The translations under genes were made by a program, and so were the position numbers. 39,085 bases of DNA, taken from a virus. Lineage: Duplodnaviria > Heunggongvirae > Uroviricota > Caudoviricetes. Below the pieces are notes generated by a model. That model did no database searches. It saw only the letters and a program-made list of their open reading frames with translations, and was not told the origin of the DNA. Of the stretch, positions 8,782-21,707 are shown in pieces. The stretch is from positions 1-39,085 of IMG/VR virus record IMGVR_UViG_3300032116_000060. One strand, written 5' to 3'. The first letter of the stretch is position 1. Each line of letters starts with the position of its first letter.

Positions 8782-8799
8782 TATGATTTTATTAGTATT

Positions 8800-8830
8800 C
8801 AAAGATACTAAAAAATTGTGTGATTTCCAA
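8800..8830 (-). promoter_or_regulatory. Bacteroidota-type promoter (T)TTGGA-N18-TATCTTTG
   Basis: Equivalent to TTTG-N20-TAnnTTTG. Confidence 0.75.
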
Positions 8831-8835
8831 ATAAA

Positions 8836-9861
8836 TTATTCTCTAATTGTATCTAATGTTACACAATGAGGGCCTCCACTAAAAGTTCTAGCGTGTCTCA
8901 TTTTGACAGGTATAGAATCCACTCCCCACTTTTTTAATTCTCTCATAAGTGGAATTTGTCGTTCTTCTACAATCATAGTGTTTTCATCGTAAGAAAGGGT
9001 GTTCATTCCCAACCACGGCGATGCTTCCGCCCAATGTTCTAGGAAAGGAGTGTCAACCATCTCAGGAGAGTAGATTTTATCCCATTTGCGAAAGACTTCT
9101 GGCATATTGGTATCATTTACCCTTTTAGGATTAAGTAAGACCAGTCCCTCTCTAATCAACACGAAAGTGGTATCAATATGGATGAATGCATATACATCTT
9201 GAATAGGATGAACTTTGTACTTTTCTTTCATGTTTTCATCCAACCATTTTTGTAAATATTGTGCACCTGCTAAGTTACCGGTATTGGAAACCAAATAGAT
9301 TATATCGTTATTACACTTTAACAGGTTAGCAGCATCAAATACAGGTTCTTCGTTCCCTAATGTTGGGCCAGGTAACAATCCCCTATCATAAATAGAATCC
9401 AATAATTTAGGTTTAGGAAAATCTACCCAATGGTTTTCATCGAAAAGGTGTTTAAATGCCCTCGCTTCATTTTGTCTTTGACGGAGAGCCATAGGTGTAG
9501 CAATTACTTTATCTTCTATAACTAACATAGAATCTCGTGGGCAATATCCATAATACCCATCTACTTCCCAATTTTCAGTTACATATTTTTCACTCCAATC
9601 AATTAAAGCGGGTCTGAATACTTCTACCCCTAACCCCTCTAATGTTTTACTTAAATCATCCAAATCTTCAATTGTTTCTTCAATCATCCAATTAGGATAT
9701 CTTCCATATGGAATACGAAGAAATTGTTCATCGGTGTAATTAGCATAATCAATTGTGTGTAGGGATTTATCTCTAACGGTTGGTATTTGTGCAAATTCAG
9801 GTCTTCCTACAATTATTTGTTTAAGTTTTCCCCATTCGTTTTTAATGTAAGGTTTTATCAT
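8836..9861 (-). CDS. Amidinotransferase (glycine/inosamine-phosphate amidinotransferase family)
   Basis: NEWGKLKQIIVG, YCPRD, VFDAAN, HIDT and C-terminal GGPHCVTLD, i.e. the Asp-His-Cys catalytic set. Confidence 0.92.
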   Translation of the reverse strand: MIKPYIKNEWGKLKQIIVGRPEFAQIPTVRDKSLHTIDYANYTDEQFLRIPYGRYPNWMIEETIEDLDDLSKTLEGLGVEVFRPALIDWSEKYVTENWEVDGYYGYCPRDSMLVIEDKVIATPMALRQRQNEARAFKHLFDENHWVDFPKPKLLDSIYDRGLLPGPTLGNEEPVFDAANLLKCNNDIIYLVSNTGNLAGAQYLQKWLDENMKEKYKVHPIQDVYAFIHIDTTFVLIREGLVLLNPKRVNDTNMPEVFRKWDKIYSPEMVDTPFLEHWAEASPWLGMNTLSYDENTMIVEERQIPLMRELKKWGVDSIPVKMRHARTFSGGPHCVTLDTIRE

Positions 9862-10403
9862 CTATCTCTTTTTTGTAATATTGGATTATTTGTAGGCCAT
9901 TCCATTTGAAACTCTGGATCATTCCACTTAACTACATATTGTTCATCTGCATCCACATAACCATCTTTATAAAATAGGTTATAGTGAAACATACAATCGG
10001 TTAGTGCATAATGTCCATTTGCAAATCCCGGCGGAACTAATACCTGATTTCTCAATCTTTCGGTTATAATGTATGATTCCCAATCTCCATAAGTTGGTGA
10101 ACCTTCTCTCATATCTAAAACAACCAAATATATATCACCTACTACCGCTTGAACTAATTTCCAAGTCTTTTTATCCCAATGTAATCCTCTTAATACACCT
10201 TTGTAAGAACGTGAAAATCTTCCATGTATTGAAAGTTCACTTTTATCATAATGTATGTGATTCATTACCGGATGCTGTTCCGAATGATATGTTGTCCATA
10301 TTTCACCTCTATACTCTCTGAATACCGATGGTTGAAATACCGGAACATCAAATCCAAATTTTTTTGATGGAGAAACTTGAAACTCATCCCATTTATTGCT
10401 CAT
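9858..10403 (-). CDS. rmlC: dTDP-4-dehydrorhamnose 3,5-epimerase family
   Basis: SYKGVLRGLH, VLDMREGSPTYG, VPPGFANGH and VKWNDP motifs. Confidence 0.9.
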   Translation of the reverse strand: MSNKWDEFQVSPSKKFGFDVPVFQPSVFREYRGEIWTTYHSEQHPVMNHIHYDKSELSIHGRFSRSYKGVLRGLHWDKKTWKLVQAVVGDIYLVVLDMREGSPTYGDWESYIITERLRNQVLVPPGFANGHYALTDCMFHYNLFYKDGYVDADEQYVVKWNDPEFQMEWPTNNPILQKRDR

Positions 10404-10407
10404 AACT

Positions 10408-11259
10408 TTAAATTAACTTACTTTTAGTATAATTATCTTTCATATATTTTTTAATGTTCATTATTGGTTCATTCACATCTTTAAAAGTAGAATACAAATT
10501 ATCATCGTATAACTTTAAAAAATCTTGATATACCGAATGATGGTATTTTGTGGTATGATGTAATAAATCTCTTGCTAAAAGTGATTCATCGTCTCTACCA
10601 TGCCATCCTCTACTACCTTCAATTACATAATAATTTGCTCCAATTTCACTTGCCAACCCTCTTATCGCCGAAGTGTTTTTATGCCAATTTAATTCAACTT
10701 GCTCATTAGTTAAAAGAGACTCTTTCATTAGATTACCAAATTTAGATTCCCAATTTTTATTATAGTTCGCGATAATATACCAGTGAGGTCTTCCATTTTC
10801 AATAAATTCATATCGAGGATACAATGGCGCATAATGGAATATATTTTTTATTTTAAGTTCTTTATAAAAAGCAAATAATAATCTAAAATGGGTATCCGTT
10901 CCTGTACCCCCTATTCCCAAATTCCAAAATTTACGACCTAATATTTTACTTAATTTATAAGACCATACATTTTCTAAATGATGACCTATTCCAAATGTAT
11001 GAGAACACCCTAAATAAACATCACCTTCATCATATGAATTAAAATCATCCGGAGTTCTAAATCCAGCATTATTTAGTTTGTATTCTATTGGATTTAATTC
11101 GTAATATTGAATACTGGGTTTATCCAGTTCTGAAATAATATGCCTATCCCAAAATTCCTTTGAATCAGTTGGTATATATTCATAAGTTTCATTCGGTTTT
11201 AAATTTAAATCATCTAATTCACATCTGTATTTTAGAATTTTATTTGTTAAATATTCCAT
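10408..11259 (-). CDS. SGNH/GDSL-like protein; C-terminus KSKLI
   Basis: LGCSHTFG block I, NLGIGG, and late RDLLHH. Confidence 0.6.
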   Translation of the reverse strand: MEYLTNKILKYRCELDDLNLKPNETYEYIPTDSKEFWDRHIISELDKPSIQYYELNPIEYKLNNAGFRTPDDFNSYDEGDVYLGCSHTFGIGHHLENVWSYKLSKILGRKFWNLGIGGTGTDTHFRLLFAFYKELKIKNIFHYAPLYPRYEFIENGRPHWYIIANYNKNWESKFGNLMKESLLTNEQVELNWHKNTSAIRGLASEIGANYYVIEGSRGWHGRDDESLLARDLLHHTTKYHHSVYQDFLKLYDDNLYSTFKDVNEPIMNIKKYMKDNYTKSKLI

Positions 11260-11260
11260 A

Positions 11261-11947
11261 TTAAATCAATGATTTTTTGAGTTTTATATTAGCTTTTCCA
11301 AAGTGTTTAATTGATTCAAATAATGTTTTAAGCTCACTATCTACAATTTTTAAATCAATCATAGATTTTTTAACAGCAATCCATATTATAATACCCTCCA
11401 TAGCACCAGGTAAATCGTAAGCCAATTTTTGATAAGGTCTAGTTTGCCTATCAATCTTTTCCCACCATTGAATAAAACTACGTTTTTTATCATTATCTTT
11501 TATATGCAAAACAAATTTACCTTCATGTATCAATTCTAAAGCATCATCGGTTACGGTAGTAAGAATAGATAAATAATCTTTCATATATTCCAACGATCCA
11601 TATACATCTCTCAATTCATCCAATCCAACTATTTTCGATGCATGAAATCCTTCATCTATATGATTCAGTATAAAAAAATCCGCATCACTTTTGATAAATG
11701 TATCTGTATCTAAAAAAAATAGTGTATCAAATTCAGTCAAAGCCTCCCCAATAACAATTCTTTTTAAATTGTAATTAAATGATTCCGATAATTTTATAAC
11801 CCTATAAACACCTTCGATAATTTTTGAAGGAGAATCAGTTCCGACTATTATTTTAAAATCCTTATCTAAATCCAATATAGATTTTGCAACTATATTAAAT
11901 TCATTAATATGTTCATCGCCGTATGCAAGAAAGCAAAAACAAAACAT
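11261..11947 (-). CDS. GT-A-like glycosyltransferase; C-terminus KKSLI
   Basis: FFLDTDTF DxD motif after KRIVIGEAL, with an N-terminal Rossmann-like strand-helix pattern. Confidence 0.55.
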   Translation of the reverse strand: MFCFCFLAYGDEHINEFNIVAKSILDLDKDFKIIVGTDSPSKIIEGVYRVIKLSESFNYNLKRIVIGEALTEFDTLFFLDTDTFIKSDADFFILNHIDEGFHASKIVGLDELRDVYGSLEYMKDYLSILTTVTDDALELIHEGKFVLHIKDNDKKRSFIQWWEKIDRQTRPYQKLAYDLPGAMEGIIIWIAVKKSMIDLKIVDSELKTLFESIKHFGKANIKLKKSLI

Positions 11948-12606
11948 TATATAATCTTATTTAAAGTATTTTGTATTCTAACCTTTTTAGTTTCAGATAA
12001 TATAAATTCATTATAATATGAATCTATTAAGTTTATTTCCAAATAATTAAATATTTTTTCTATCTCACCCTTTTTATAGGATTCGAATATATCTTCATAA
12101 TAAAAAATGGGTTGTTCACATTTGATTGATATACTAGATAGTAATTTAGCGGATGCCGTATATCTATCTACCATATTTTGAATATATAAAGAATCTATTT
12201 CTGCTATATTGTATTTTTTTGGAGTATGCCAATCTATGCCGTATTTTCTAAACATAGTTTCATTAAAAGCAAAACTTTCAGATTGTGCTAATTTATCAAT
12301 TCTATCCAATAAAATTATTTTATCGAAAAATGATATACACCAATCGAAATATGAATTCGAACTATTAAAAGATTTTAAAGGATACTCATTATTTTCAACT
12401 AATAGTAATGTTTTTACTAATAGATTATTACAATTTTGCAATGGTATAATAGTTTGAAAATCGAATCCTTTGTTTTTATACAATTGATAAAAGTTTGGAT
12501 TAAATGGTTCTATAAAAAGGGAATAATCCGGATTTAAATGTGCATTTATTAATTTAGTTAAAGAGGTAGAACCACTTCTAGGAGTAGCCAAAACTAAAAT
12601 TTTCAT
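11947..12606 (-). CDS. PAPS-dependent sulfotransferase; C-terminus LNKII
   Basis: LATPRSGSTSL (5'-phosphosulfate loop), LDRIDKLAQSES (3'-phosphate site) and FYYEDI. Confidence 0.8.
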   Translation of the reverse strand: MKILVLATPRSGSTSLTKLINAHLNPDYSLFIEPFNPNFYQLYKNKGFDFQTIIPLQNCNNLLVKTLLLVENNEYPLKSFNSSNSYFDWCISFFDKIILLDRIDKLAQSESFAFNETMFRKYGIDWHTPKKYNIAEIDSLYIQNMVDRYTASAKLLSSISIKCEQPIFYYEDIFESYKKGEIEKIFNYLEINLIDSYYNEFILSETKKVRIQNTLNKII

Positions 12607-13121
12607 AAAATTGATTTTTCTTGCATTCTAAATTTATGCAAAAACATAGCAATCGCCCATCTTTCACCACTTGTTATGGGAGTAACTTGATGAGGTGTCT
12701 GTGATTGATATATGCATACATTACCAATTTTTTTATTTATATAAATAGGATTATCGTTTTCATCAAAAATGAGATAATCCCCTCCCATAAAATTTTCGTT
12801 AAGAACAATACCTACATTCCATTCTTTTAAAGGTGATCCAGTATCTATGTGCTTACCAAATTCATCACCTATGGTATAATGATGTAAATTTAATTTTGTA
12901 GGTCGGGTATGGATTTTTAATTTAGTTTCATTTTCAAAAAAATCACACATTCTATTTATAATCCAATTTATATCATCTATAAATTCTAGTGCATAAAATT
13001 TATATTTGAAATTATCGAATATATCCCATCTACCATTATCACCCAACAGAGGATACTTATATTTTAAGTCAATAATATATTCACATTCCTCTTGTGAAAA
13101 TAAGATTGATTGATATAACAT
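12603..13121 (-). CDS. 2OG-Fe(II) oxygenase; C-terminus EKSIL
   Basis: KHID, GGD and PHQVTPITSGERW motifs. Confidence 0.9.
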   Translation of the reverse strand: MLYQSILFSQEECEYIIDLKYKYPLLGDNGRWDIFDNFKYKFYALEFIDDINWIINRMCDFFENETKLKIHTRPTKLNLHHYTIGDEFGKHIDTGSPLKEWNVGIVLNENFMGGDYLIFDENDNPIYINKKIGNVCIYQSQTPHQVTPITSGERWAIAMFLHKFRMQEKSIL

Positions 13122-13123
13122 AT

Positions 13124-13261
13124 TTAACTTAGATGTCTATCTTTAATTTTATTAACTACCGTTTGAATAGCAGCATTTACTTTTACTTTAGTATCATTAG
13201 ATAAAGCTACAATACTTGGCTTAATCGTTTGAATCGGTCTATTAATTCTTATATCTGACAT
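13124..13261 (-). CDS. 45-aa small protein (not in ORF track)
   Basis: MSDIRINRPIQTIKPSIVALSNDTKVKVNAAIQTVVNKIKDRHLS* fills the gap between the Hint gene and the next oxygenase. Confidence 0.75.
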   Translation of the reverse strand: MSDIRINRPIQTIKPSIVALSNDTKVKVNAAIQTVVNKIKDRHLS

Positions 13262-13273
13262 AATTAAATTATT

Positions 13274-14767
13274 TTAAAGTTTAGGGGGTTGGCCGCCTCC
13301 GCCACAACCCGAACAGGTGTTGTCATAACAATAGTTTCCACAATATGACCACGGACAATAACAACTATTGTGCATTACTGAAAAAACATCATCTCCGATA
13401 TCAACCAAAAAAAGGTCGGATGGCTCGAAATCCAATCCGTAAACCATCATTTGAGCGTGTTCCATTTCTAAATTAGTTATTTCTAATGTCGATAATTGTT
13501 GTGTATTAGAATCGGTTACAACTAATTTATCACCAATATACATTTGGTTTAGTTTTTCAAATCTTGTTGATGTTGAGCCGGATTCTTCAATATAGTATGT
13601 ACACGATGGAGAATCTACCCAACTTTTACCATCAGCTGTCGTTACCCTTATATAAATTGTATCTATTGATGAAGAAATAATTCCTTGTAAAGATGATGAT
13701 GTTTGAAGTAAGGTTTCATTGGATTTTGATAAACTACCACTCCATCCAAATACATTTAATTTACCTTCTTCAAAATTAGCAGCGTGATTATCGTTATAAT
13801 CTACAAAATCTATTGAACGAATATAATCTCCGATCTGTAAATCACTTGCATTAATAATTGAACCCGTATAATTAATAATTTTAGAGTCCATATCGGTGTG
13901 ATAACTTTCAATTTTTTGATTCACACCAACTTCCTTTGTGATGTATTTCTGTCTACTCTTTTGAATTAATTTTCTATCAGCAGTAAATTCATTAGCTATA
14001 AAATCAATTGGTATTACAGTGGATTGCTTATATCCACCCATACTGATTACTTCCAAATTACTACCATATATAACATCAATGCTTCTTATTATAGAATATT
14101 TATTATCCACTAAATTATCAGTTGAATATAAAAATTCTTGTATAAGGTATTCCGAAGTATTCGATGATTTTAATGAATCTAATTGAGATTGTGATTCTAA
14201 TGAATATATTGATGGATATAATGCAGTATCATAGCTAGGAGCCTGTGCTTTTACTATAACATTTGGTGTTCCATTGGTTTGAAAACTAACATTATTTAAT
14301 GTATCCATACTAACTTCAGATGAACTAAAATAAGTTTTTGGTATATATTGGCTACCGCTCATCAGTTCACAGAATCCAAATTTATCAGCACAATACGAGT
14401 CATCAATCAATGCTGTCGTATCATACGATTGTCTTAATATAAATTTAGTAGGAGAATCTTCTATATATGGTACCGTAACAGAATTAAAAGGAACGATGTA
14501 TTCATTAAAAGAAATGTTATTTTCATTACATTTTTGAACTAATTTTTCCTTAAATCGATATCTTTCATTAGATGGTGAATGGGAATCTCTTTCAGTATAT
14601 ATAAAATGAAATTCTGATATGTTATTCTGAACTAACATATCAAATAACCCATCATATTCCAATAGTTCAGCTCCAGGATTATAAATGGTTGTATTTGTAT
14701 TTATCTCTAAAATTTTTACATCATTATTGTATTCCAATAAATCTGAACCCAATATTATTGCTTTCAT
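13274..14767 (-). CDS. Circularly permuted ATP-grasp + Hint domain + C-terminal Cys-rich 30-aa peptide
   Basis: aa 1-289: N-terminal GSD...KILEINTN, then DKF...IPKTY, IVK, YLIQEF. aa 290-467: Hint-like TGSIINASDLQIGDYIRS, YIGDKL, VYGLDFEP and VMHN. aa 468-497: SCYCPWSYCGNYCYDNTCSGCGGGGQPPKL. Confidence 0.8.
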   Translation of the reverse strand: MKAIILGSDLLEYNNDVKILEINTNTTIYNPGAELLEYDGLFDMLVQNNISEFHFIYTERDSHSPSNERYRFKEKLVQKCNENNISFNEYIVPFNSVTVPYIEDSPTKFILRQSYDTTALIDDSYCADKFGFCELMSGSQYIPKTYFSSSEVSMDTLNNVSFQTNGTPNVIVKAQAPSYDTALYPSIYSLESQSQLDSLKSSNTSEYLIQEFLYSTDNLVDNKYSIIRSIDVIYGSNLEVISMGGYKQSTVIPIDFIANEFTADRKLIQKSRQKYITKEVGVNQKIESYHTDMDSKIINYTGSIINASDLQIGDYIRSIDFVDYNDNHAANFEEGKLNVFGWSGSLSKSNETLLQTSSSLQGIISSSIDTIYIRVTTADGKSWVDSPSCTYYIEESGSTSTRFEKLNQMYIGDKLVVTDSNTQQLSTLEITNLEMEHAQMMVYGLDFEPSDLFLVDIGDDVFSVMHNSCYCPWSYCGNYCYDNTCSGCGGGGQPPKL

Positions 14768-14791
14768 TTGTTACAATTATCTTTTTTCAAC

Positions 14792-14801
14792 TATAAATAT
14801 A
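14792..14801 (-). promoter_or_regulatory. TATATTTATA motif upstream of the ATP-grasp-Hint gene
   Basis: Lies in the 41-nt gap, the longest intergenic gap between 10408 and 21707. Confidence 0.55.
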
Positions 14802-14808
14802 TATAAAC

Positions 14809-15114
14809 TTAAATTATTGATTTTTCACGCTTATCCTCTATCTTTTCAATAAACCCATTATCACACTCTTCCCATTTTAGGAGTGGACAGCTATTATAAA
14901 TTTTAGTAAATATTTTTTTATTAAGGGGGCAGCCACACCCTTTACAATATTCAGACCACTTTTGATTTTTTATGACGGATTTTTTTAATTCACATTTTGA
15001 ACAAATAGAATACCTTCTTTCTGCTAATTTTTTCTCATCATCAGATGGGTTTCTGGCAGTTATCCATGCATTAAAAATTTCTTTATAATCGTATTTAATA
15101 CCATTTATTTTCAT
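14809..15114 (-). CDS. Cys-rich putative Zn-binding protein (DUF6171-like); C-terminus EKSII
   Basis: RYSICSKC...CKGCGCPL...K...SCPLLKW pattern. Confidence 0.7.
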   Translation of the reverse strand: MKINGIKYDYKEIFNAWITARNPSDDEKKLAERRYSICSKCELKKSVIKNQKWSEYCKGCGCPLNKKIFTKIYNSCPLLKWEECDNGFIEKIEDKREKSII

Positions 15115-15123
15115 AATAATTAA

Positions 15124-15753
15124 CTATAATAAAGAATTTGTTTTTAGGGGTTTTGCAACAAAATTTAAATTAAGTATATATCTACTACCTTTAGTTGGAT
15201 AATTTGCGTGATGTGCATATCTCCCATCAAAAACTAAACATCTTCCCATTTTTGGAGAAATTTTAGTCAATAGTTCAAAAGAATCTAAATTTACATTATC
15301 AAAATTTTCCATATACGTCTCTGCGTTATCTCCAAATTTATTACGATAAATACACGTATCACCATCTATATCATTAATATAATATACTGCAGCAATATGT
15401 TCTGCTATTCTATCATAGTGTAATAAATCAATTGGGTTATACTCATAATTTAACGGAGATGTATGGTTAATTTTCCATCTGTAAGTGGTTACAAATTCTA
15501 ATCCTATTTTTTTGGATATAATACGTTGTATATTCTTAATTAGCTCATCTATTTGTTCGTTCTTACAGTCGATTTGAGGATGAACTTTTGCAGGAAATTT
15601 ATGTGTATTTTTTTTACCACCGTAATTTCCTGTTATATTCTCTGTTTCATTCCATTTAATCTCACTATTGTTCGCATAGTTATATAAGATTTTTTGCTCA
15701 TCTACTGATAGCAAATCGTCAAAAACTTCATATATTTTGTCGGAATAAAGCAT
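15124..15753 (-). CDS. 2OG-Fe(II) oxygenase-like; C-terminus TNSLL
   Basis: LHYD, VYYINDIDGDT and HHANYP...RYILNLNF motifs. Confidence 0.8.
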   Translation of the reverse strand: MLYSDKIYEVFDDLLSVDEQKILYNYANNSEIKWNETENITGNYGGKKNTHKFPAKVHPQIDCKNEQIDELIKNIQRIISKKIGLEFVTTYRWKINHTSPLNYEYNPIDLLHYDRIAEHIAAVYYINDIDGDTCIYRNKFGDNAETYMENFDNVNLDSFELLTKISPKMGRCLVFDGRYAHHANYPTKGSRYILNLNFVAKPLKTNSLL

Positions 15754-15754
15754 T

Positions 15755-16543
15755 TTATATTAAGGTTTTAGTTGTTTTATGTAAATCATAGTAATCATAA
15801 ATACTATTATATTTGACAACAAAATTGTCATCTAATGGTAGATTTGTTTTTATATTTTTACTAGAATTTACATATTGTATTTTAAATGGTTTTTTAGTTT
15901 TATCAGATACCCATTTATCTAAATCTTGCAGTTTATCAAATTCAAACCATATTATATTTGGGTTATGATTTGTCCAAAAAGAAATCGGAGTTAATAGGAT
16001 ATCAATTAGATTAACCAGATAACCATTCTTTTCTTTCCAATAATTTTCTTCGTTTTTTCTACTTGATAAAGTTACGTTAATATCGACCGGTTGGTTAATT
16101 AATTTTAATTCAATTAGATAATCTGAAATTTTATCCCATCTCGTCTTTTTGCTAATTAAATCATCTTTTGTGAAAAAAAATAATTCATTCAAAGTAAAAT
16201 GGGAAAACGTATCATAAAAATCTAAATAACCCAATCGTTTAAAATCGGATAACATATGTTTGTAGAATGAATAGAAACGCTCATGTCTTTCTCTATTAAC
16301 CGCTATCACAGGAACATCAATACCAAATTTAGATTGTAAATCTGAAATGGTTTCATGTCCATGAAATATATGATTCATTAAATCTTCTTTTTCAATTGAA
16401 TTAAAATCAATATGTTCATTTGATACTTCCCATTCACCATTATTAGTTTTTACGCCAATATTATTTATAATACAAGAATAGTGAAACGAAGTAGATGCAC
16501 ATCTCGGTAAACTTAAATATATAAACTTATTATCTACTAGCAT
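15755..16543 (-). CDS. Sulfotransferase (family 2-like); C-terminus TKTLI
   Basis: FIYLSLPRCASTSF, NRERHERFYSFY and VNSS motifs. Confidence 0.75.
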   Translation of the reverse strand: MLVDNKFIYLSLPRCASTSFHYSCIINNIGVKTNNGEWEVSNEHIDFNSIEKEDLMNHIFHGHETISDLQSKFGIDVPVIAVNRERHERFYSFYKHMLSDFKRLGYLDFYDTFSHFTLNELFFFTKDDLISKKTRWDKISDYLIELKLINQPVDINVTLSSRKNEENYWKEKNGYLVNLIDILLTPISFWTNHNPNIIWFEFDKLQDLDKWVSDKTKKPFKIQYVNSSKNIKTNLPLDDNFVVKYNSIYDYYDLHKTTKTLI

Positions 16544-17112
16544 TATAATAGTGATTTGGTAACATTTTTAGATGGCCAAACATTTAAGGAATACCTATTT
16601 CTATTTTCTATCTTTTTGACAGAGTGACTTATATTAGAATCAAATATAAAAACGCTACCTATTTTCTTATTAATCGTATAAATGTTATTATCTATATTAT
16701 ATTGTATTTCACCTCCATCATAATCATCATTTAGTTGAATTATAAATGTAATCGTAGCTCCATTTAGTATTTCATGACTGTCAGAATGCCAATCTAAAAA
16801 ATCTCCTACACCATATTTGTTAAAAGAGTATTTTTTAATATAGCTGTATTCTATTCCTTTAAATGGATTTAAATTATTTGATAAATTAATAATTTTATTT
16901 GTCAGGCTTTTTACAATAGGTAAATCAAGTTGTTCATTGAGAAAATAACACCCTAATCTTTTATTACCTGCATATTCCAGGTTTTCACCAACTAATTCTC
17001 CATTGACAAATTTTGAAGATTTCATTTGGATTAAATCAATTGAATTGCCCAAATTAATTAAAGAAATACATTCATCTTCGTTTAAAAAATTTTCAATATA
17101 GCTTGCAAACAT
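16543..17112 (-). CDS. 2OG-Fe(II) oxygenase; C-terminus TKSLL
   Basis: WHSD, YDGGE and SHSVKK...RYSLNVW motifs. Confidence 0.9.
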   Translation of the reverse strand: MFASYIENFLNEDECISLINLGNSIDLIQMKSSKFVNGELVGENLEYAGNKRLGCYFLNEQLDLPIVKSLTNKIINLSNNLNPFKGIEYSYIKKYSFNKYGVGDFLDWHSDSHEILNGATITFIIQLNDDYDGGEIQYNIDNNIYTINKKIGSVFIFDSNISHSVKKIENRNRYSLNVWPSKNVTKSLL

Positions 17113-17753
17113 TATATTATTGATTTTTCTTTTTTAATATATTCAAACCCAACATTCCCCGCTAATACTATTCTATCAATAGTTGAATTAGGAGCGTTGT
17201 TTGGAGAATGAGGCATATCTGCTTCCATTATGATTAAATCATCCTCTTCAGGTCTAATCCAATACTCTTGACCATCTTTACCTTTAAAATATAATACACC
17301 ATCTTCTCCATTCATTACATCTGGCATTTGAATATAATAAACATAGGTATAGGATGGTGGAAATGATTTTGTTTTTTTATTGATTTCAGTATGAATATGA
17401 AACTTTTGATTATCATCGTAAAAGTTTGGTTGAATTGGATCTATAGATCTAACTACATTTACCCAAGCATCAATATTAATTTTATTAAAAGGTAAGTTAT
17501 TTGTAGTGTAAAGTTCTTTACATAAATCTATGCCATTTTGAATAACTTCATCTAATTTACTTTTAATCTCAATTTTACCTATAAAATTTAAATTATTATT
17601 CCATTCCTTTTTATATCCAAATCCATCAGTTTTGACACCAGGTTGAGAGTCAATAACTGAATAGGCTTCTTTTAGAAATAATGATTTATCGGTTAATTTA
17701 TTTAGTTTTGTTTTCCAAATAAAAGTGGTATCATTAAAATATAACTTTTCCAT
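17112..17753 (-). CDS. 2OG-Fe(II) oxygenase-like; C-terminus EKSII
   Basis: FHIH, YVYYIQMP and PHSP...RIVLAGN motifs. Confidence 0.75.
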   Translation of the reverse strand: MEKLYFNDTTFIWKTKLNKLTDKSLFLKEAYSVIDSQPGVKTDGFGYKKEWNNNLNFIGKIEIKSKLDEVIQNGIDLCKELYTTNNLPFNKINIDAWVNVVRSIDPIQPNFYDDNQKFHIHTEINKKTKSFPPSYTYVYYIQMPDVMNGEDGVLYFKGKDGQEYWIRPEEDDLIIMEADMPHSPNNAPNSTIDRIVLAGNVGFEYIKKEKSII

Positions 17754-18994
17754 TAAATTAATTCTTTTTTTAATACTTTTTTATTTTTTCTAAAAATAGT
17801 TTGATAATTGTGTGTAAAGAATGTCAACATATTTTGTGGAGTTTCTACTAAATCAAAGGATTTCAATAAATCTCTATCGTTTTTGATAATAATGTTGTTA
17901 TCTTTATCTAGTATTTGTTTCAATTTTTTTGGAATTGGTTTATTATATGCATCAATCCAAAATTTGTTATCCAATCTTTCCGCTAAATAGTGGTATCTAA
18001 CAAACATCATATTTTGCTCATTAATTTCTTCACACCATTTATTGAACCCATCTTTATAATTTTCATCAAAGTTTTTATCAACCAATCTTTTAAGTTGCAT
18101 AATAGTCGACATCAACGATGTTGCTTCTAATGGTTCTATAAACCCATATGATAATCCTATTGATATAGAGTTACCAATCCAACTTCTTTTATATCTACCT
18201 GGATTATAACTAAACACTTTTTGAATTTCTATTTCATGCCCTAAATAGTCTTCAACTTCTTTTTTCGCATCTTCTACTGTTATATAATCTTTATTAAAAG
18301 AATAGCCACATCCCCATCTGTGTTGTAGTTCAATTTGCCACATCCACCCACAACTCATAGCAACCATATTTGTATATGTCTTATCTTTAATTGTAAGTTT
18401 TTTATTTTGAGGTAGGAAAAATGCAATGCTACTATTAATCATTAAATATTTTGAATAATCAACCCATTCCTCATTAAATAGATTTCCAACTAATCTATTA
18501 AATCCACTACAGTCAAAAACAAAATCAGAACTAATTATTCTATCATCTACTAATTTGAAACTTTTAATAAACTCACCTGTATTATTAATTGTTTCTATTT
18601 CCCCATCAATCCAATTAACACCCCTATCTATTGCTATTTGTTTAAAGTAATCTGCAACTTTTCTTGCATCAAAATGATAACCAAATGATTTTGTAAAAAC
18701 AGTTGGCTCTTCACCTGTAAATAAATGTTTTGCTGTGCTACCATCTCCAAGCCAATTTATTAAGTTTAGCCCACGCTTATTTGTAGCACCTGTTTTTTCA
18801 TAAAAATCTTTTTGATTTATACCTAATAATGATAAAATTCTACCGAAGTTTGGTGTGCTTCCTTCGCCCGCTCCTAGTATTCCTATTTTGGAACTTTCTA
18901 CCAATGTTACATTTGTATTTTCCCAAAATTTATTTACTATTAGAGCAGTAAGCCATCCAGCAGTCCCACCTCCGATTATGATTATTTTTTTCAT
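17753..18994 (-). CDS. Flavin-dependent (tryptophan-halogenase family) halogenase; C-terminus KKELI
   Basis: IIGGGTAGW, GAGEGS, GATNKRG (catalytic Lys position), DCSGF, GWMWQIEL (WxWxI) and FIEPLEATS. Confidence 0.9.
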   Translation of the reverse strand: MKKIIIIGGGTAGWLTALIVNKFWENTNVTLVESSKIGILGAGEGSTPNFGRILSLLGINQKDFYEKTGATNKRGLNLINWLGDGSTAKHLFTGEEPTVFTKSFGYHFDARKVADYFKQIAIDRGVNWIDGEIETINNTGEFIKSFKLVDDRIISSDFVFDCSGFNRLVGNLFNEEWVDYSKYLMINSSIAFFLPQNKKLTIKDKTYTNMVAMSCGWMWQIELQHRWGCGYSFNKDYITVEDAKKEVEDYLGHEIEIQKVFSYNPGRYKRSWIGNSISIGLSYGFIEPLEATSLMSTIMQLKRLVDKNFDENYKDGFNKWCEEINEQNMMFVRYHYLAERLDNKFWIDAYNKPIPKKLKQILDKDNNIIIKNDRDLLKSFDLVETPQNMLTFFTHNYQTIFRKNKKVLKKELI

Positions 18995-19551
18995 TATAAT
19001 AATGTTTTCTTATAATTTTTTTGTGTTTCTAATTCCAACCAATTAACAATTGAATACCTAACTCCATTTTTAATTTCTTTAATTCTATGTTTAGTTAAAG
19101 ATGAAAATGCAAATAAATTACCTATTCCTTTTTTTAACGAATATACCTTACCATCAATTTCTAACTCTAATTCACCTCCTTCATATTCATCGTTAAGTTG
19201 AATTACAATTGTTAAAATTCGTTGATTATATACATCATCTGAAGAATCGGTGTGCCAATTAAAATAATCTCCATTTTGGTATTTAGTAAATTGATAGTTT
19301 GAAATTTTGAAATTGTATCCTTTTATACCAAAGTATTCTTTTAGCTTTTTAATAATTCTATCATTAAGTTCTTCCAAATCGATTCCCGCAACTTTAGATT
19401 TTCTTTTACTAACATCAATAACATTATTCATTAATTTACTATCATACACTTCCGCTATTTTTAAAACCGATTCATTTACACACTTATTAAGTATCTGATT
19501 ACATTCTTCTTTAGAGAATACATTTTCGAAAACTTTAAATTTACCAATCAT
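18994..19551 (-). CDS. 2OG-Fe(II) oxygenase (start revised to MIGKF at 19551); C-terminus KKTLL
   Basis: WHTD, YEGGEL and HRIKEIKNGVRYSIVNW motifs. Confidence 0.9.
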   Translation of the reverse strand: MIGKFKVFENVFSKEECNQILNKCVNESVLKIAEVYDSKLMNNVIDVSKRKSKVAGIDLEELNDRIIKKLKEYFGIKGYNFKISNYQFTKYQNGDYFNWHTDSSDDVYNQRILTIVIQLNDEYEGGELELEIDGKVYSLKKGIGNLFAFSSLTKHRIKEIKNGVRYSIVNWLELETQKNYKKTLL

Positions 19552-20066
19552 ATTAAAGAAAATTTTGATTGTTTTTTTGAAAACCAAACAATTAATACCT
19601 CTCGATTTCCTTTTGTAATCGGCTTTACTTCATGAAAATCATTACCACCAAAGAAACTTACATATTCACCGTTTGTATTTAATTGTATCTTTTTATCATT
19701 TACATACATATCCCCTCCCTCAAATTCATCTGATAAAATTATACTTACCGTTTTATGTGTTGCATATCTATCTTTATGTTTTTTCGCAAAATCACCTACA
19801 CCATAGATGTGTTTATGTATCATATACAAATACTCAATGGGTTCTTCTAATTTCTCACATAAAAAGTTGTTAAGATTTTTGTTTTTTAATGAATATATTA
19901 TAGAATTTTCGGTAATAAGAGCCACATCATCCCCTTTTTCTCCAATATATGTGGAATAAAGTTGAGAATGTGCAGATTTTACGAACTTAATTTCATCATC
20001 ATTCATCAATGGAGTTATTTCCAATTGAGATTTTAAATACAAAAAATCATCTAACAATAATTTCAT
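19548..20066 (-). CDS. 2OG-Fe(II) oxygenase; C-terminus KFSLI
   Basis: KHKD, FEGGD and HEVKPITKGNREVLIVW motifs. Confidence 0.9.
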   Translation of the reverse strand: MKLLLDDFLYLKSQLEITPLMNDDEIKFVKSAHSQLYSTYIGEKGDDVALITENSIIYSLKNKNLNNFLCEKLEEPIEYLYMIHKHIYGVGDFAKKHKDRYATHKTVSIILSDEFEGGDMYVNDKKIQLNTNGEYVSFFGGNDFHEVKPITKGNREVLIVWFSKKQSKFSLI

Positions 20067-20686
20067 ATTATTTTATTTGTTTTAGATTGAAAGGCCACTA
20101 AATCATCTTTTATATCTAAAAAGGTATGCATTTTTTTATAAAATTCATAGCAACCTTTCCAACCAGGATGCCAATCCATAGGATCACCTCCTTCATCTGC
20201 AATCGAAGTAACCTGAATCAACTCAACAAAATCAGAAGTCATCTTATGAAAATCTTCATTCCAGGTCACAAATACCGGAGAAAAATCATTATACAACTCT
20301 TTAAGTTTTTTTAAAAATAGTATTTCATTATTTCTTTCACCATTTAACCAATGTGATGTTTCGGATAATCTAACTTCTAATAATTTTTTTGCAAATTGTT
20401 TATCTTTATACCATTCCCAATTAAAATATTTTATATGATGATGTGTTTCTCTTTCCCCAAAAAATCTTCTTGGAAATCTACCTGGTGCACTAAATACAAT
20501 CACTAATCTATCACCATATTCGTATTTTGGAATTAAACCTGTTTGATAAAGAATAGAATGATTATCCGCGCCAAATTTTCCTAACTTAATAACATTGTAG
20601 TGATTGGATAAATAATTAGTCCAATGAGTTTCAGGCATATCCCAATCTACAAAACTATCACCGCAAATGTAAATGCTAGGTTTCAT
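20063..20686 (-). CDS. SGNH/GDSL-like protein (start revised to MKPSIY at 20686); C-terminus TNKII
   Basis: ICGDSF, GADN and MDWHPG motifs. Confidence 0.65.
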   Translation of the reverse strand: MKPSIYICGDSFVDWDMPETHWTNYLSNHYNVIKLGKFGADNHSILYQTGLIPKYEYGDRLVIVFSAPGRFPRRFFGERETHHHIKYFNWEWYKDKQFAKKLLEVRLSETSHWLNGERNNEILFLKKLKELYNDFSPVFVTWNEDFHKMTSDFVELIQVTSIADEGGDPMDWHPGWKGCYEFYKKMHTFLDIKDDLVAFQSKTNKII

Positions 20687-20687
20687 A

Positions 20688-20903
20688 TTAATTATCCTTT
20701 TTAAGGCCAAACTTTATCCACTTATACCAAACTCTTTCGTGAAGATAATACTGAATAGGTTTATAGATTAATTCTGCTACACCAAATGCTGCACCAACTT
20801 TAATTGAGCCACTTACCCACCACATAATACCAAACCCTATTAGAGTTGAAACTATTCGATATGATATAGTTTTAGCTATGTGCCTCTTTCTCTCTACTAT
20901 CAT
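20688..20903 (-). CDS. DUF2061-like small membrane protein
   Basis: RHIAKTISYRIVST...YYLHERVW pattern. Confidence 0.85.
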   Translation of the reverse strand: MIVERKRHIAKTISYRIVSTLIGFGIMWWVSGSIKVGAAFGVAELIYKPIQYYLHERVWYKWIKFGLKKDN

Positions 20904-21279
20904 CGTTATCTATATTATAAACAATTACATCACCGTTAGAATCGATGTATTTTTTTCTAATCGCAGTTCCGCTTATGGCTTCGATTTCTTTCGGAGGAGT
21001 ATGATATATTACCTCATATCCAACTGCTCTACCATAGTTTACCGATTCGATATCTGGTATCACACTTATGTATATTTTCTTTGAGTTTTCTACAAAAAAA
21101 GGTTCTTTACACAAATCCATTAAAACCTGATGAGCAGACTTAGGATTGTTCTCATCTTTCGGAACATCTCTAATTGCTACCCAAACATCTTTCCCTTTAT
21201 CCAATTGTTGGCGGATTAACCATTCGTGTCCGGCGTGCCAAGTCTGCCACCTTCCAATAAACATTGCATATTTTTTCAT
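20872..21279 (-). CDS. HxGH nucleotidyltransferase (cytidylyltransferase-like)
   Basis: FIGRWQTWHAGH and the late ISGTAIR motif. Confidence 0.8.
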   Translation of the reverse strand: MKKYAMFIGRWQTWHAGHEWLIRQQLDKGKDVWVAIRDVPKDENNPKSAHQVLMDLCKEPFFVENSKKIYISVIPDIESVNYGRAVGYEVIYHTPPKEIEAISGTAIRKKYIDSNGDVIVYNIDNDDSREKEAHS

Positions 21280-21707
21280 ATTAGTGATTTTAATCTTTGA
21301 AATGTTGTAAACTCATCCTCATCTGTCGTATCTACATCTATAAAGTTTTTCAACGGCGGTTCGTAGTTAGAAACGTGAAACGATTCTCTACCCCTTATAT
21401 CGGTAGTATGAACATATAATTCTTTTATATTCTCACCCATTTCGGTTTTAAATGCTTCTCTTTGGTCTCTATAAGGAGAAACTAATGAGACAATTGCCAC
21501 ATTACCTTTGTGGTGAAAAAACTTAGCCATTCGTTGAGCAAGTTCTATGTTCTTTCTCCTTCCTGCTTCGGAGTAATCTTTATTATCAAATATGGCCCTT
21601 ATATCATCTCCATCGATTACCATACCCCTCTCCCTAAAATGAGCTTGAAACCAATTTGCTAATGTAGTTTTCCCCGCACCTGGCTGACCCGTAAACCAAT
21701 ATATCAT
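21276..21707 (-). CDS. cysC: Adenylyl-sulfate kinase; C-terminus LKSLI
   Basis: WFTGQPGAGKTT, DGDDIR, SLVSPYRDQR and YEPP motifs. Confidence 0.92.
   Translation of the reverse strand: MIYWFTGQPGAGKTTLANWFQAHFRERGMVIDGDDIRAIFDNKDYSEAGRRKNIELAQRMAKFFHHKGNVAIVSLVSPYRDQREAFKTEMGENIKELYVHTTDIRGRESFHVSNYEPPLKNFIDVDTTDEDEFTTFQRLKSLI

Follow-up and report, generated by a model that had tools for sequence, protein, structure and literature searches.

Several described systems resemble the phage locus analyzed here, each in part. RiPP pathways, such as those of graspetides/microviridins and of halogenated lanthipeptides (MibH), place a gene-encoded peptide beside several tailoring enzymes, join a conserved recognition part to a hypervariable core, include an ATP-grasp enzyme in the cluster, and release the product by proteolysis; the locus shares these properties, release being a step that we infer for it. 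The Hint fold of BIL, pretoxin-HINT and Hedgehog Hint domains and of mini-inteins recurs in its central protein (Z 16-17.5), together with the terminal His-Asn and a block-F/G-like sequence. Another part of this protein has its best structural matches in GspS and Escherichia coli YgiC/YjfC and carries the N-terminal E-x-N motif expected in a permuted ATP-grasp domain. In GspS, an amine is coupled to glutathione through the C-terminal carboxylate of the latter. Pup/PafA and LysW/LysX likewise have a small partner protein encoded next to an ATP-dependent amide ligase, and the joining point, putatively also in our locus, may be a lysine or a C-terminal carboxylate. Unrelated proteins with a common short C-terminal signal, whose reader is encoded alongside, are also found in the LPXTG/sortase, PEP-CTERM/exosortase, and encapsulin systems, the last of which use short C-terminal cargo-loading peptides. 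Several 2OG oxygenases and a PrnA-like halogenase are present in cyanomyoviruses (Syn9, P-SSM2, S-PM2) and pelagiphage HTVC008M as well, and tandem 2OG-dioxygenase/Trp-halogenase phage arrays were predicted to modify peptides (Iyer et al. 2010, PMC2938197).

Results

A conserved viral gene block surrounds a hub protein

The window, a stretch of 39,085 nucleotides from the 103-kb genome of an uncultured large phage, contains an island with about a dozen modifying enzymes that are unrelated to one another but share a short C-terminal tag. Tentatively, we read this island as one copy of a virus-specific hub-and-tag module that would make a modified peptide. Its features, with the evidence for each, are as follows.

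10408..11259, minus strand: SGNH/AlgX-like protein, 283 aa, tag SKLI (Atlas structure)
11261..11947, minus strand: GT-A (GT8-like) nucleotide-sugar transferase fold, 228 aa, tag KSLI (Atlas structure)
11947..12606, minus strand: sulfotransferase-like P-loop protein, 219 aa, tag NKII (weak Pfam, PRSGSTS loop)
12603..13121, minus strand: 2OG-Fe(II) oxygenase, 172 aa, tag KSIL (PF13640 E 6e-10)
13124..13261, minus strand: micro-ORF, 45 aa, third core component (synteny, HMM)
13274-14767, minus strand: hub protein, 497 aa, in the order ATP-grasp domain, Hint domain, disordered 30-aa six-Cys tail
13277..13366, minus strand: hub aa 468-497, disordered six-Cys tail with a single Lys, K496 (translation, model)
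13367..13900, minus strand: hub aa 290-467, Hint domain, C-terminal cutting only (VIA-align)
13901..14767, minus strand: hub aa 1-289, permuted ATP-grasp amidoligase domain, GspS/YgiC-like (Foldseek, invariant residues)
14809..15114, minus strand: Cys-rich core protein, 101 aa, CxxC...CxxCxC...C, tag KSII (synteny)
15124..15753, minus strand: 2OG-Fe(II) oxygenase, 209 aa, tag NSLL (PF13640 E 2e-4, below cut-off)
15755..16543, minus strand: Sulfotransfer_2-like sulfotransferase, 262 aa, tag KTLI (Atlas features)
16543..17112, minus strand: 2OG-Fe(II) oxygenase, 189 aa, tag KSLL (PF13640 E 2e-12)
17112..17753, minus strand: 2OG-type oxygenase, 213 aa, tag KSII (PF13640 E 1e-4, below cut-off)
17753..18994, minus strand: flavin-dependent halogenase, short form, 413 aa, tag KELI (PF04820 E 2.7e-84)
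18994..19587, minus strand: 2OG-Fe(II) oxygenase, 197 aa, tag KTLL (PF13640 E 3e-14)
19548..20066, minus strand: 2OG-Fe(II) oxygenase, 172 aa, tag FSLI (PF13640 27.1 bits, cut-off 27)
20063..20710, minus strand: SGNH-like protein, 215 aa, tag NKII (GDS motif alone, in translation)
20688..20903, minus strand: DUF2061 small membrane protein, untagged (Pfam PF09834 E 1e-15)
20872..21279, minus strand: HxGH nucleotidyltransferase, 135 aa, untagged (phrog_10255, weak CTP_transf_like match)
21276..21707, minus strand: APS kinase (CysC-like), 143 aa, ending KSLI (Pfam PF01583 E 7e-19)

In the close clade of IMG/VR (80 loci), the gene block is conserved around the hub, with the Cys-rich protein as a neighbor in 74 loci, the halogenase in 62, the two sulfotransferases in 75 and 59 (the latter being the 219-aa protein), and the 2OG families in 78 (the 197-aa family), 67, 65, and 53, while the outer flanks vary. 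A second clade retains the hub, micro-ORF, Cys-rich protein, and tagged enzymes (80 loci). The block occurs on approximately 160 viral contigs in total and is essentially absent from cellular genomes. These observations support the view that the enzymes and the tail-bearing protein form a single conserved, virus-specific module. We found no paper describing such a hub-and-tag system, and tblastn matched the hub to none of 50,697 GenBank phage records. The preliminary description had offered the released peptide as a substrate for the oxygenase/halogenase arrays of aquatic phages in general; this explanation fails, as the hub is unmatched in those records and the corresponding enzymes of HTVC008M and P-SSM2, which have no hub, are all untagged.

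The Cys-rich protein adjoins the hub in distant clades as well and is tagged in 53 of 53 cases; C38, C41, C57, C60, C62, and C76 are invariant, and its model (pLDDT 82, the last decade floppy) matched no fold in the PDB. The micro-ORF lies directly 3' of the hub gene in every locus with downstream DNA, and its HMM has matches in 79 loci and once in the 103-kb genome; in other clades, shorter counterparts of 25 to 41 aa ending in ANS or AHS follow the hub. Neither had been made use of in the preliminary description. Hub, Cys-rich protein, and micro-protein are the three parts of the module's core, and the surrounding set of tailoring enzymes would be swappable.

The C-terminal tag is selected at the amino acid level

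Endings of the form [STKNEQ][LIVM][LIVM] were found in 14 of 17 island ORFs and in 5 of 166 in the remainder of the genome (Fisher p 2e-14). The tag, [S/T/K/N]-[L/I]-[I/L]-COOH behind a floppy basic linker, always occupies the extreme C-terminus (925 unique ORFs). It is present on 48 of 49 halogenase homologues, on all 65 of the 262-aa sulfotransferase, and on approximately 100% of the 2OG families, while across loci the hub and the PAPS-supply genes are without it, APS kinase homologues being tagged in only 1 of 23 cases. Since both TCN and AGY codons are used for Ser at position -3, selection acts at the protein level.

The hub combines an ATP-grasp domain, a Hint domain, and a hypervariable tail

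Foldseek matched hub residues 1 to 289 to YgiC (7uk8, E 3e-5) and also to YjfC and GspS, and E21, N23, R112, D122, and R228 are invariant among 89 homologues with identity down to ~22%. The most likely chemistry of this domain, still putative, is the formation of one amide bond involving the single lysine of the tail. We found no paper describing an ATP-grasp domain fused ahead of a Hint domain.

The Hint domain was recognized by neither Pfam nor PHROGs. In the AlphaFold model of the hub (pLDDT 89.6), residues 290 to 467 align with BIL2, the C. thermocellum BIL, mini-inteins, and Hedgehog at Z 16-17.5 and an rmsd of ~2 Å (VIA-align), with His290 at the Cys1 position and Asn467 at that of the terminal Asn. 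The N-terminal nucleophile is thus missing and the terminal His-Asn kept, H466 and N467 being at least 90% conserved. Because position 1 is not Cys, Ser, or Thr, an N-terminal acyl shift is impossible, and splicing was ruled out by the variable +1 residue of the family (A, S, G, P, D, Q, or T), leaving C-terminal cutting alone as possible. Sequence and model support the retention of the residues that cutting at Asn467 would require. In some relatives, the tail is flanked by a further module capable of self-cutting, which is an S74 domain in some cases and a complete Hint domain in others.

The tail contains 1 Trp, 4 Tyr, 3 Pro, 1 Asp, 2 Asn, 3 Ser (2 internal), 1 Thr, 6 Cys, 6 Gly, and 1 Lys, and residues 472 to 497 have pLDDT below 50. 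Tails are hypervariable between clades, with the rest of the hub conserved; the Cys pattern is conserved within the clade of this hub, and 168 of 170 Cys-containing tails have an even number of Cys (6, 8, 10, or 12). Many tails lack Asp or Glu for cross-linking. One relative carries a tagged SET-domain protein alongside a Lys-rich tail.

The tag is predicted to dock on the ATP-grasp domain

Complex prediction with the 213-aa oxygenase, using our own alignments, gave ipSAE values of 0.69, 0.69, and 0.68 in three runs, the best of 3 controls scoring 0.00; among 80 solved complexes, 58 attain that mark, compared with 2 among 110 mismatched pairs. Partner pLDDT was at least 83, and at least 73% of contacts were in common between runs. 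Enzyme residues 204 to 213 are placed against hub residues 2-4, 93-102, 112, 116-121, 233, 235, and 238, in the groove where conservation of the ATP-grasp domain is highest. Docking as predicted would link the enzymes physically to the tail-bearing hub.

The tagged genes encode tailoring enzymes

Translation, Pfam, and Atlas comparisons bear out the tail composition and the neighboring enzyme set given in the preliminary description. Six oxygenases belong to PF13640, which we take to be a prolyl-4-hydroxylase-type family, three above and three below the Pfam cut-off, and HxD/E...H...R is present in all six translations. In the 213-aa oxygenase, H119, H121, H182, and R194 are invariant and the end IKKEKSLI is conserved (25 homologues). 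Only residues 103 to 348 of the halogenase align with PrnA, RebH, and VirX1, over their residues 157 to 409 (chains of 510-550 aa), and the C-terminal module of free-Trp halogenases is missing. The 262-aa sulfotransferase, with no Pfam match, has an Atlas feature score of 0.97 to Sulfotransfer_2 clusters, and its family profile matches heparan-sulfate 2-O-sulfotransferase (E 0.002); the 219-aa protein has weak matches to Sulfotransfer_1 (22.3 bits versus 22) and Sulfotransfer_3. By Atlas structure, the 228-aa protein resembles nucleotide-diphospho-sugar transferases (TM 0.80) and the 283-aa protein the GDSL/AlgX families and DUF6473 (TM ~0.6), both without a Pfam match; the former is restricted to the source genome and its 99% twin. 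The 215-aa SGNH-like protein matched neither Pfam nor PHROGs and has a relative in 3 loci.

Among 80 loci, 28 have an APS kinase homologue heading the module, 42 have the DUF2061 protein in synteny, and 39 have the 135-aa nucleotidyltransferase, tagged in none. The last matches the C-terminal half (134-227 of 230) of phrog_10255 ("kinase", E 3e-10), a family that would be a kinase-nucleotidyltransferase fusion; the 135-aa protein is a candidate ATP-sulfurylase-like partner of the APS kinase.

Tail residues do not track enzyme content

The preliminary description had matched each enzyme class to residues of the tail. Using independent pairs on a tree of 70 hub proteins, we detected no such co-variation. 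Tails with at least two Trp arise or are lost 5 times and the halogenase 4 times, with agreement at the clade level only; the two move together in ~0.4 of 3 and 0.7 of 4 independent pairs, and nine Trp-rich tails of the other clade are without halogenase. Mean Tyr content is 2.94 both with and without the sulfotransferase, and in 7 pairs scored for at least three Tyr, 0.3 changed in the same direction, 1.2 in the opposite direction, and 5.5 showed no difference. One relative whose seven-residue tail contains neither Tyr nor Trp still has APS kinase, sulfotransferases, and 2OG oxygenases, each with the tag, and relatives with tails of 5 to 7 residues retain tagged 2OG, sulfotransferase, SGNH, and halogenase genes. 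Enzymes and tail are linked, yet tail residues do not track enzyme content. The proposal that the enzyme set is a peptide-modifying pathway thus gains a conserved module, a predicted tag docking, and a conserved His-Asn, and loses its residue-by-residue match.

Discussion

We hypothesize that the tag of each enzyme docks in the conserved ATP-grasp groove of the hub, which would bring the enzyme beside the hub's own disordered Cys- and aromatic-rich tail. Docked enzymes would hydroxylate, halogenate, and sulfate the tail, PAPS being supplied by the APS kinase and the small nucleotidyltransferase, and the Hint domain would cut after Asn467 via asparagine cyclization, freeing a product of ~30 residues. 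We hold this reading as a whole with less than even confidence; release of the tail, its role as substrate, and the choice of residues to be modified are steps that we infer. Counted in its favor were the P4H-type oxygenases, a halogenase without the free-Trp C-terminal module, the SET-domain/Lys-rich-tail pairing, hypervariable tails on a conserved body, the extra self-cutting modules, and the untagged flanking sugar enzymes. Counted against it were the lack of residue/enzyme co-variation, the tagged enzymes of short-tailed relatives, the absence of a role for the invariant ATP-grasp Mg-binding/catalytic residues or the universal single lysine, and the fact that sugars are the usual substrates of the Sulfotransfer_2, GT-A, and SGNH families and that sugar genes flank the module in relatives.

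The lysine keeps alive a rather less probable explanation, a sorting-like ligation of protein to peptide, in which the ATP-grasp domain would activate the tag carboxylate as an acyl-phosphate and join it to the tail lysine; after the Hint cut, the enzyme would carry a branched Cys-rich peptide, or a short stub in tail-less relatives, and act on some other substrate. At least one Lys occurs in all 174 unique tails and exactly one in 152, and Lys is kept in tail-less forms, after the second Hint (KK, AKKF, RLNKL), exactly at the S74 cleavage site, and in two relatives without His-Asn. The amidoligase likeness and invariant residues of the hub, the strictly terminal tag, and the predicted placement of the last four enzyme residues (210-213) against the most conserved hub residues, R112 included, also fit ligation. 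Tag position -4 is Lys in only 54%, so that the mechanism cannot in general run with the reverse polarity; if the carboxylate is what reacts, this is irrelevant. Ligation, however, leaves unexplained the fast-evolving, even-numbered Cys pattern and why the tagged set are tailoring enzymes, would consume one hub molecule per enzyme molecule, and has no evident benefit to the phage. We consider it unlikely, and more so, that the scaffolded enzymes tailor a non-peptide product (a sugar, polysaccharide, or small molecule that would be sulfated, hydroxylated, or halogenated), the tail not being a substrate and the hub merely gathering enzymes or having a separate job. The Sulfotransfer_2, GT-A/GT8, and SGNH/AlgX-like folds typify enzymes that tailor glycans, RmlC adjoins the island within the window, relatives have carbamoyltransferase, GT4+FkbM methyltransferase, and GT9 genes on the flanks of the module, the presence of a dedicated PAPS supply suggests sulfation in bulk, and enzyme content is independent of tail composition; a cyanophage halogenase/2OG/carbamoyltransferase cluster has likewise been read as making a sugar- and amino-acid-derived metabolite (Iyer et al. 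2021, PMC7824862). But none of the flanking sugar enzymes carries the tag, which means that the tagged enzymes are handled differently; their sole universal partners across clades are the hub, micro-ORF, and Cys-rich protein, and six of six oxygenases are P4H-type.

That the tag is instead a turnover, localization, or packaging signal that a different component reads, for example a host tail-specific PDZ-domain protease or a capsid component, its proximity to the hub reflecting operon organization, appears improbable. The tag does fit the class-I PDZ ligand form (S/T-x-hydrophobic-COOH), and encapsulin cargo peptides offer a precedent, but the predicted docking on the hub far exceeds the controls, the tag is confined to hub-adjoining genes in ~160 loci and rare elsewhere in the source genome, and no tagged enzymes were seen in the hub-less HTVC008M and P-SSM2.

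The hub-and-tag reading, if true, would reverse RiPP logic, in that the enzymes bear the recognition tag and the substrate protein bears the receptor. The "leader" would be a 467-aa two-domain protein, release would use Hint rather than a protease, and the ATP-grasp domain is GspS-type, not MdnB/C-type, with Asp and Glu lacking from many tails. Unlike BILs and inteins, the hub Hint has His290 at position 1, a variable +1 residue, and an ATP-grasp domain in front. Identity to GspS, YgiC, and YjfC is ~11-12% with a partial TM (0.29 by query), and the predicted ligand is a protein C-terminal tail, not the glutathione of GspS, in a domain that continues into a Hint domain and a peptide. The arrays of the cultured cyanomyoviruses and HTVC008M have neither hub nor tag, and their halogenases are longer (464-485 aa). 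Compared with the sorting systems, the signal is only ~4-8 residues with a free hydrophobic end, and its predicted reader is an ATP-grasp domain in the phage-infected cytoplasm, with no membrane anchor, transpeptidase, or shell. In contrast to Pup/PafA and LysW/LysX, a single polypeptide holds the putative ligase, its presumed amine substrate, and a self-cutting domain, and the polarity would run from the target C-terminus to the peptide Lys.

Island enzymes share a C-terminal tag that is predicted to bind the hub

The window covers the first 39 kb of a contig of 103 kb and 32% G+C, and nearly all of its genes lie on the minus strand. The island consists of 17 ORFs of at least 60 aa, tightly packed from 21707 down to 10408. 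Fourteen of these 17 ORFs end in [STKNEQ][LIVM][LIVM], as against 5 of 166 elsewhere in the genome (p 2e-14). The features on which the analysis centers are:

21276-21707 (-), APS kinase
17112-17753 (-), 213-aa 2OG-Fe(II) oxygenase
14809-15114 (-), Cys-rich 101-aa protein
13274-14767 (-), 497-aa hub protein, with an ATP-grasp domain (residues 1-289), a Hint domain (290-467) and a tail (468-497)
13124-13261 (-), 45-aa micro-ORF

Across the loci compared, this ending, which we call the tag, was present on the halogenase in 48 of 49 cases, on all 65 of the 262-aa sulfotransferases, on all 53 Cys-rich proteins and on essentially all 2OG oxygenases. It was missing from all nucleotidyltransferases, DUF2061 proteins and hubs, and 1 of 23 APS kinases had it. 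In the window, and likewise in a 99% twin, the APS kinase ends in KSLI; the kinase is untagged in 22 of 23 other loci. The profile of 925 unique tagged ORFs is a Lys-rich linker followed by T/S/K/N, L/I and I/L. For Ser at -3, the TCN and AGY codon boxes are used about equally and Leu/Ile codon use is as in gene bodies, so selection acts on the tag as protein rather than as a signal at gene junctions. An origin of the tag as a by-product of gene junctions or of translational coupling was rejected on the same codon use and on the persistence of the tag when the next gene is 9-41 nt away.

We modeled the complex of the hub with the 213-aa oxygenase, each with its own alignment. Three runs gave ipSAE values of 0.69, 0.69, and 0.68, while the best of three controls gave 0.00; the benchmark mark for this score was reached by 58 of 80 solved complexes and by 2 of 110 mismatched pairs. 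The partner pLDDT was at least 83, and at least 73% of the contacts were common to the runs. The confident contacts place enzyme residues 204-213 against hub residues 2-4, 93-102, 112, 116-121, 233, 235, and 238. These hub positions, the invariant R112 among them, belong to the most conserved of the family. The predicted complex supports binding of the tag to the ATP-grasp domain of the hub.

The hub joins an ATP-grasp domain to a Hint domain

The hub has no match in Pfam (up to E 10) or PHROGs. Its AlphaFold model, built with an alignment of 89 homologues, has a pLDDT of 89.6 and a pTM of 0.85, with residues 472-497 below 50. In Foldseek, residues 1-289 match 7uk8 (E 3e-5), 7uk6 (4e-5), and 2io7 (8e-5) over about 310-320 columns. 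The proteins matched are YgiC, YjfC, and glutathionylspermidine synthetase, which we take to be permuted ATP-grasp amidoligases; the TM scores are modest and place the domain at the level of the superfamily only. Even in homologues of only about 22% identity, E21, N23, R112, D122, and R228 do not vary, a pattern that argues for an active enzyme and against a relic; K173 is nearly invariant. Mg/ATP-binding and carboxylate-binding roles were assigned to these residues tentatively, by analogy.

In the model, residues 290-467 form a Hint fold, which aligns over 135-146 residues with mini-inteins (Z 16-17.5, rmsd about 2 Å). It is matched best by Tetrahymena BIL2, Hedgehog, the BIL of Clostridium thermocellum, and mini-inteins including NpuDnaB. 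Where the RecA, Prp8, and RadA inteins have residue 1 and Hedgehog has Cys258, the hub has His290, so that there is no Cys/Ser/Thr nucleophile at this position; Asn467 aligns with the terminal Asn of inteins. H466 and N467 are at least 90% conserved among 89 diverse homologues. The +1 residue after Asn467 is Ser468 in the window and A, S, G, P, D, Q, or T in close homologues. Because position 1 is His290 and the residue after the Asn is variable, the hub Hint domain is neither an intein nor of the BIL-A/Hedgehog type. As judged from the alignment and the model, the sole autoprocessing chemistry left to it would be asparagine cyclisation at its C-terminal end.

The 41-nt gap before the hub gene does not contain the Bacteroidota -7 promoter motif TAnnTTTG, which is no more frequent in the window than chance would give (66 occurrences, 62 expected).

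The tail is variable but keeps a single lysine

The preliminary description gave the Trp, Tyr, Pro, Asp, Asn, Ser, Thr, and Cys content of the tail correctly; the tail further holds six Gly and one Lys (K496). In the close clade, the tail is conserved as x-C-W-C-P-W-x-x-C-G-x-x-C-x4-C-x2-C, a few variable residues, and then K-[LIV]. From clade to clade, tails are hypervariable in length and sequence. Among 174 unique tails, an even number of Cys (6, 8, 10, or 12) was found in 168 of the 170 that contain Cys. All 174 contain Lys, and in 152 of them there is a single one. The Lys is kept even where the tail is as short as 5-7 residues. It is also kept when a second, complete Hint domain is inserted in the tail, this domain being followed by KK, AKKF, or RLNKL. 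In relatives whose tail continues into a weak S74-like autocleaving domain, the Lys immediately precedes the conserved Ser of the S74 motif.

The second Hint domain of some relatives prompted us to consider head-to-tail cyclisation of the tail, as in cyclotides. We dropped it as a general model, given the short Lys-containing end that follows the second Hint domain and the unconserved C-termini of the second-clade tails.

A conserved gene block in uncultured phages

The close clade of the hub comprises 567 clusters at 90% identity, nearly all of 492-499 aa and about 60% identical over their full length; the wider family has 263 clusters at 50% identity. A scan of IMG/VR yielded 80 close-clade loci on contigs of up to 333 kb, many of them truncated. 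In these 80 loci, the Cys-rich 101-aa protein adjoins the hub in 74, the two sulfotransferases are beside it in 75 and 59, four 2OG families in 78, 67, 65, and 53, and the halogenase in 62. DUF2061 is present in 42, the nucleotidyltransferase in 39, and the APS kinase in 28. The outer flanks of the module vary among the close-clade loci. A second clade, in which the Hint domain ends in IEHN, was reached with a 13-member clade alignment as the query and adds 80 further loci, in which the PAPS genes come first and are followed by the hub, the micro-ORF, the Cys-rich protein, and then the tagged enzymes. When two distant hubs were each used alone to scan viral contigs, there were no matches. Many loci of both clades have sugar enzymes without the tag on the flanks of the module (a carbamoyltransferase, a GT4+FkbM methyltransferase fusion, a methyltransferase, and GT9).

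The hub family is confined to viral contigs: among 185,579 cellular species genomes scanned, there was one weak, partial match, on a 5-kb MAG contig. The hub and another window protein had no tblastn match in GenBank phages, and our literature search found no description of an ATP-grasp/Hint fusion or of the tag.

Three unusual loci were noted. The 211-kb IMG/VR contig UViG_3300042892_005961 (loci L095 and L104) has two hub genes separated by about 38 kb; their tails differ, and each gene is accompanied by a Cys-rich protein and tagged enzymes of its own. In the related locus L081 (70-7559 (-) and 12159-12536 (+)), the hub has a 7-residue Lys/Pro tail and shares its strand with a Biotin_lipoyl protein and a tagged SET-domain protein; five radical-SAM/SPASM-like genes and a PhyH gene lie on the other strand. 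L072 (IMGVR_UViG_GVMAG-M-3300009164-63) comes from a bin labeled as a giant-virus MAG, and since its gene packing and tagged enzymes resemble those of the phage loci, it is probably mis-binned.

The preliminary description proposed that the island builds a decorated peptide and left two core parts of it unused, the micro-ORF and the Cys-rich 101-aa protein. The 45-aa micro-ORF lies directly 3' of the hub gene in every locus with downstream DNA and is well conserved, with an end of the form ...IKxKHL(S); it is too short to pass the usual ORF cut-off. In other clades, the same place is taken by a micro-ORF of 25-41 aa that ends in ANS or AHS. The HMM of the 45-aa micro-ORF does not reach these shorter ones, and they are candidate relatives by position, size, and a similar C-terminal end only. 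The micro-ORF product could be a partner, a substrate, or a regulator of the ligase. The Cys-rich 101-aa protein, the other universal neighbor of the hub, is itself tagged and has an invariant CxxC...CxxCxC...C pattern. Its model had no PDB match at E <= 0.001, and its secondary structure makes an RRE/PqqD domain seem unlikely.

Identities of the island enzymes

Family searches confirmed most of the gene calls made at the outset. The APS kinase (E 7e-19) and DUF2061 were matched in Pfam. The halogenase matches Trp_halogenase PF04820 with E 2.7e-84, and both the GxGxxG and the WxWxI motif are present in its translation. The alignment of this 413-aa protein with PrnA (538 aa) and similar chains is confined to their residues 157-409; by this alignment, it is without the C-terminal substrate-binding module of free-Trp halogenases. 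Six proteins match the P4H-like 2OG-Fe(II) oxygenase family PF13640, three above and three below the Pfam cut-off, and the HxD/E...H iron triad with the distal Arg is visible in all six translations. The 213-aa oxygenase falls below the Pfam cut-off; its family shares an invariant H-x-H-T-[D/E], and this stretch could represent either a three-His or an HxD/E metal site.

For the 219-aa protein, the match to Sulfotransfer_1/3 is borderline (Sulfotransfer_1 at 22.3 bits, cut-off 22). Pfam has no match for the 262-aa protein; it is Sulfotransfer_2-like by Atlas features (score 0.97), and its family profile matches heparan-sulfate 2-O-sulfotransferase (E 0.002). The predicted folds of the 228-aa and 283-aa proteins are GT-A/GT8-like and SGNH/AlgX-like, respectively. 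The 135-aa protein beside the APS kinase is an HxGH nucleotidyltransferase that matches the C-terminal half of a 230-position phage family annotated "kinase." That family is presumably a kinase-nucleotidyltransferase fusion, and we infer that the APS kinase and the 135-aa protein form a pair for PAPS supply.

Several genes outside the island were also noted:

5870-6835 (+), the region's only plus-strand gene
6838-7219 (-), complete tmRNA (ARAGORN) with a 24-residue tag peptide ending in YAVAA, just outside the island and adjoining the plus-strand gene
7222-8802 (-), DNA-methyltransferase-like protein (phrog_12517/phrog_498)
8836-9861, amidinotransferase/ADI-like gene
9858-10403, RmlC epimerase
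32184-33515 (-), paralog of the methyltransferase-like protein at 7222-8802 (phrog_12517/phrog_498)

The RmlC and amidinotransferase/ADI-like genes precede the methyltransferase-like gene at 7222-8802, and this trio is syntenic in several related loci.

No co-variation of enzyme content with tail residues was observed

It had been proposed that the enzymes match the residues of the tail, the halogenase acting on Trp and the sulfotransferases on Tyr. The comparison covered 65 dereplicated loci in which 5 kb or more is present to either side of the hub. The halogenase is present in 23 of the 24 close-clade loci, all with at least two Trp in the tail, and in none of the 41 other loci, though nine of those tails have 2-4 Trp. 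Complete close-clade clusters without the halogenase retain the Trp. On a tree of 70 hub bodies, the halogenase changes four times and the state of at least two Trp five times, and about 0.4 of 3 and 0.7 of 4 independent pairs go in the same direction. For sulfotransferases, detected only by similarity to the two of the window, and at least three Tyr, the seven independent pairs divide into 0.3 in the same direction, 1.2 in the opposite direction, and 5.5 without difference. The mean number of Tyr is 2.94 with a sulfotransferase and 2.94 without.

Two small contrasts speak for the proposal: a 5-residue tail ending in Trp lies beside a halogenase, and the 7-residue Lys/Pro tail lies beside the tagged SET-domain protein with no halogenase. 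The latter locus keeps the APS kinase and sulfotransferases, and its tail has no Tyr. Thus, by the measure set in the preliminary description, the residue match is not supported: co-variation, looked for in three ways, was observed for neither residue, in a test whose power is low, with 3-7 independent pairs.

Cultured cyanophage and pelagiphage arrays are without hub and tag

Reports of oxygenase, halogenase, and sulfotransferase arrays in aquatic phages go back to at least 2010, with no substrate assigned (PMC2938197), and the island had been suggested to supply one for them. Among cultured phages, pelagiphage HTVC008M and cyanomyoviruses have the nearest relatives of the halogenase. Neither the halogenase nor the neighboring 2OG/PhyH proteins of HTVC008M and P-SSM2 are tagged, and a search of GenBank phages found no hub in either genome. 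The hub system therefore cannot be the general substrate of the arrays of Iyer et al. (PMC2938197; PMC7824862). The suggestion fails for the classical cyanophage arrays, which have neither hub nor tag.

Interpretation and comparison with known systems

Because the synteny is conserved and the tag is predicted to contact the hub, we consider the enzymes of this uncultured large-phage lineage to be tied to one protein with a putatively cleavable, fast-evolving Cys-rich peptide. The reading that we place first, while granting it somewhat less than an even chance, is RiPP-like: the tagged enzymes are recruited to the hub and modify its tail. This reading explains the swappable tailoring enzymes, the docking, the P4H-type oxygenases, a halogenase without the free-Trp module, and the presence of a disordered core that evolves fast on a body that is conserved. 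It leaves unaccounted for the active-looking ATP-grasp domain and the universal single Lys. Exactly these are explained if the ATP-grasp domain joins the tagged proteins to the tail Lys, which would also explain the need for a free C-terminus; such a ligation accounts neither for the Cys-rich variable peptide nor for the substrate of the enzymes, and we regard it as rather unlikely.

A fuller version of ligation, which we hold to be unlikely, is a viral system of protein tagging or sorting. Here, the ATP-grasp domain would read the four-residue C-terminal tag and join its terminal carboxylate to the Lys of the hub's own cysteine-knot tail, and a cleavage-only Hint domain would free the conjugate. 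If so, the whole set of a dozen unrelated enzymes would gain a fast-evolving peptide handle. It is improbable that the enzymes form a scaffolded set acting on a glycan or a small molecule, and very improbable that the tag is read by something other than the hub. Two principles suggested by the system may be useful: recruitment through a tag on the enzyme instead of the substrate, and release of a peptide by a Hint domain able to cut at its C-terminal end only.

The system resembles several known ones in part. With inteins, the hub has in common the Hint fold and the penultimate His and terminal Asn, but it is missing the position-1 nucleophile and the conserved Cys/Ser/Thr at +1. The Hint domains of A-type BILs and Hedgehog have a thioester-forming N-terminal Cys where the hub has His290. 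In graspetides, a core rich in Thr/Ser/Lys and Asp/Glu is cross-linked by an MdnB/C-type ATP-grasp enzyme. The hub system differs on both counts, and we rejected this class because many tails are without Asp or Glu and the ATP-grasp domain matches GspS/YgiC, not the MdnB/C-type microviridin ligases. In RiPP clusters, the precursor is specifically recognized by its enzymes, a feature that the hub system shares by prediction only, and the enzyme content tracks the modifiable residues of the core, which it does not in the hub system according to the low-power test on the 70-protein tree.
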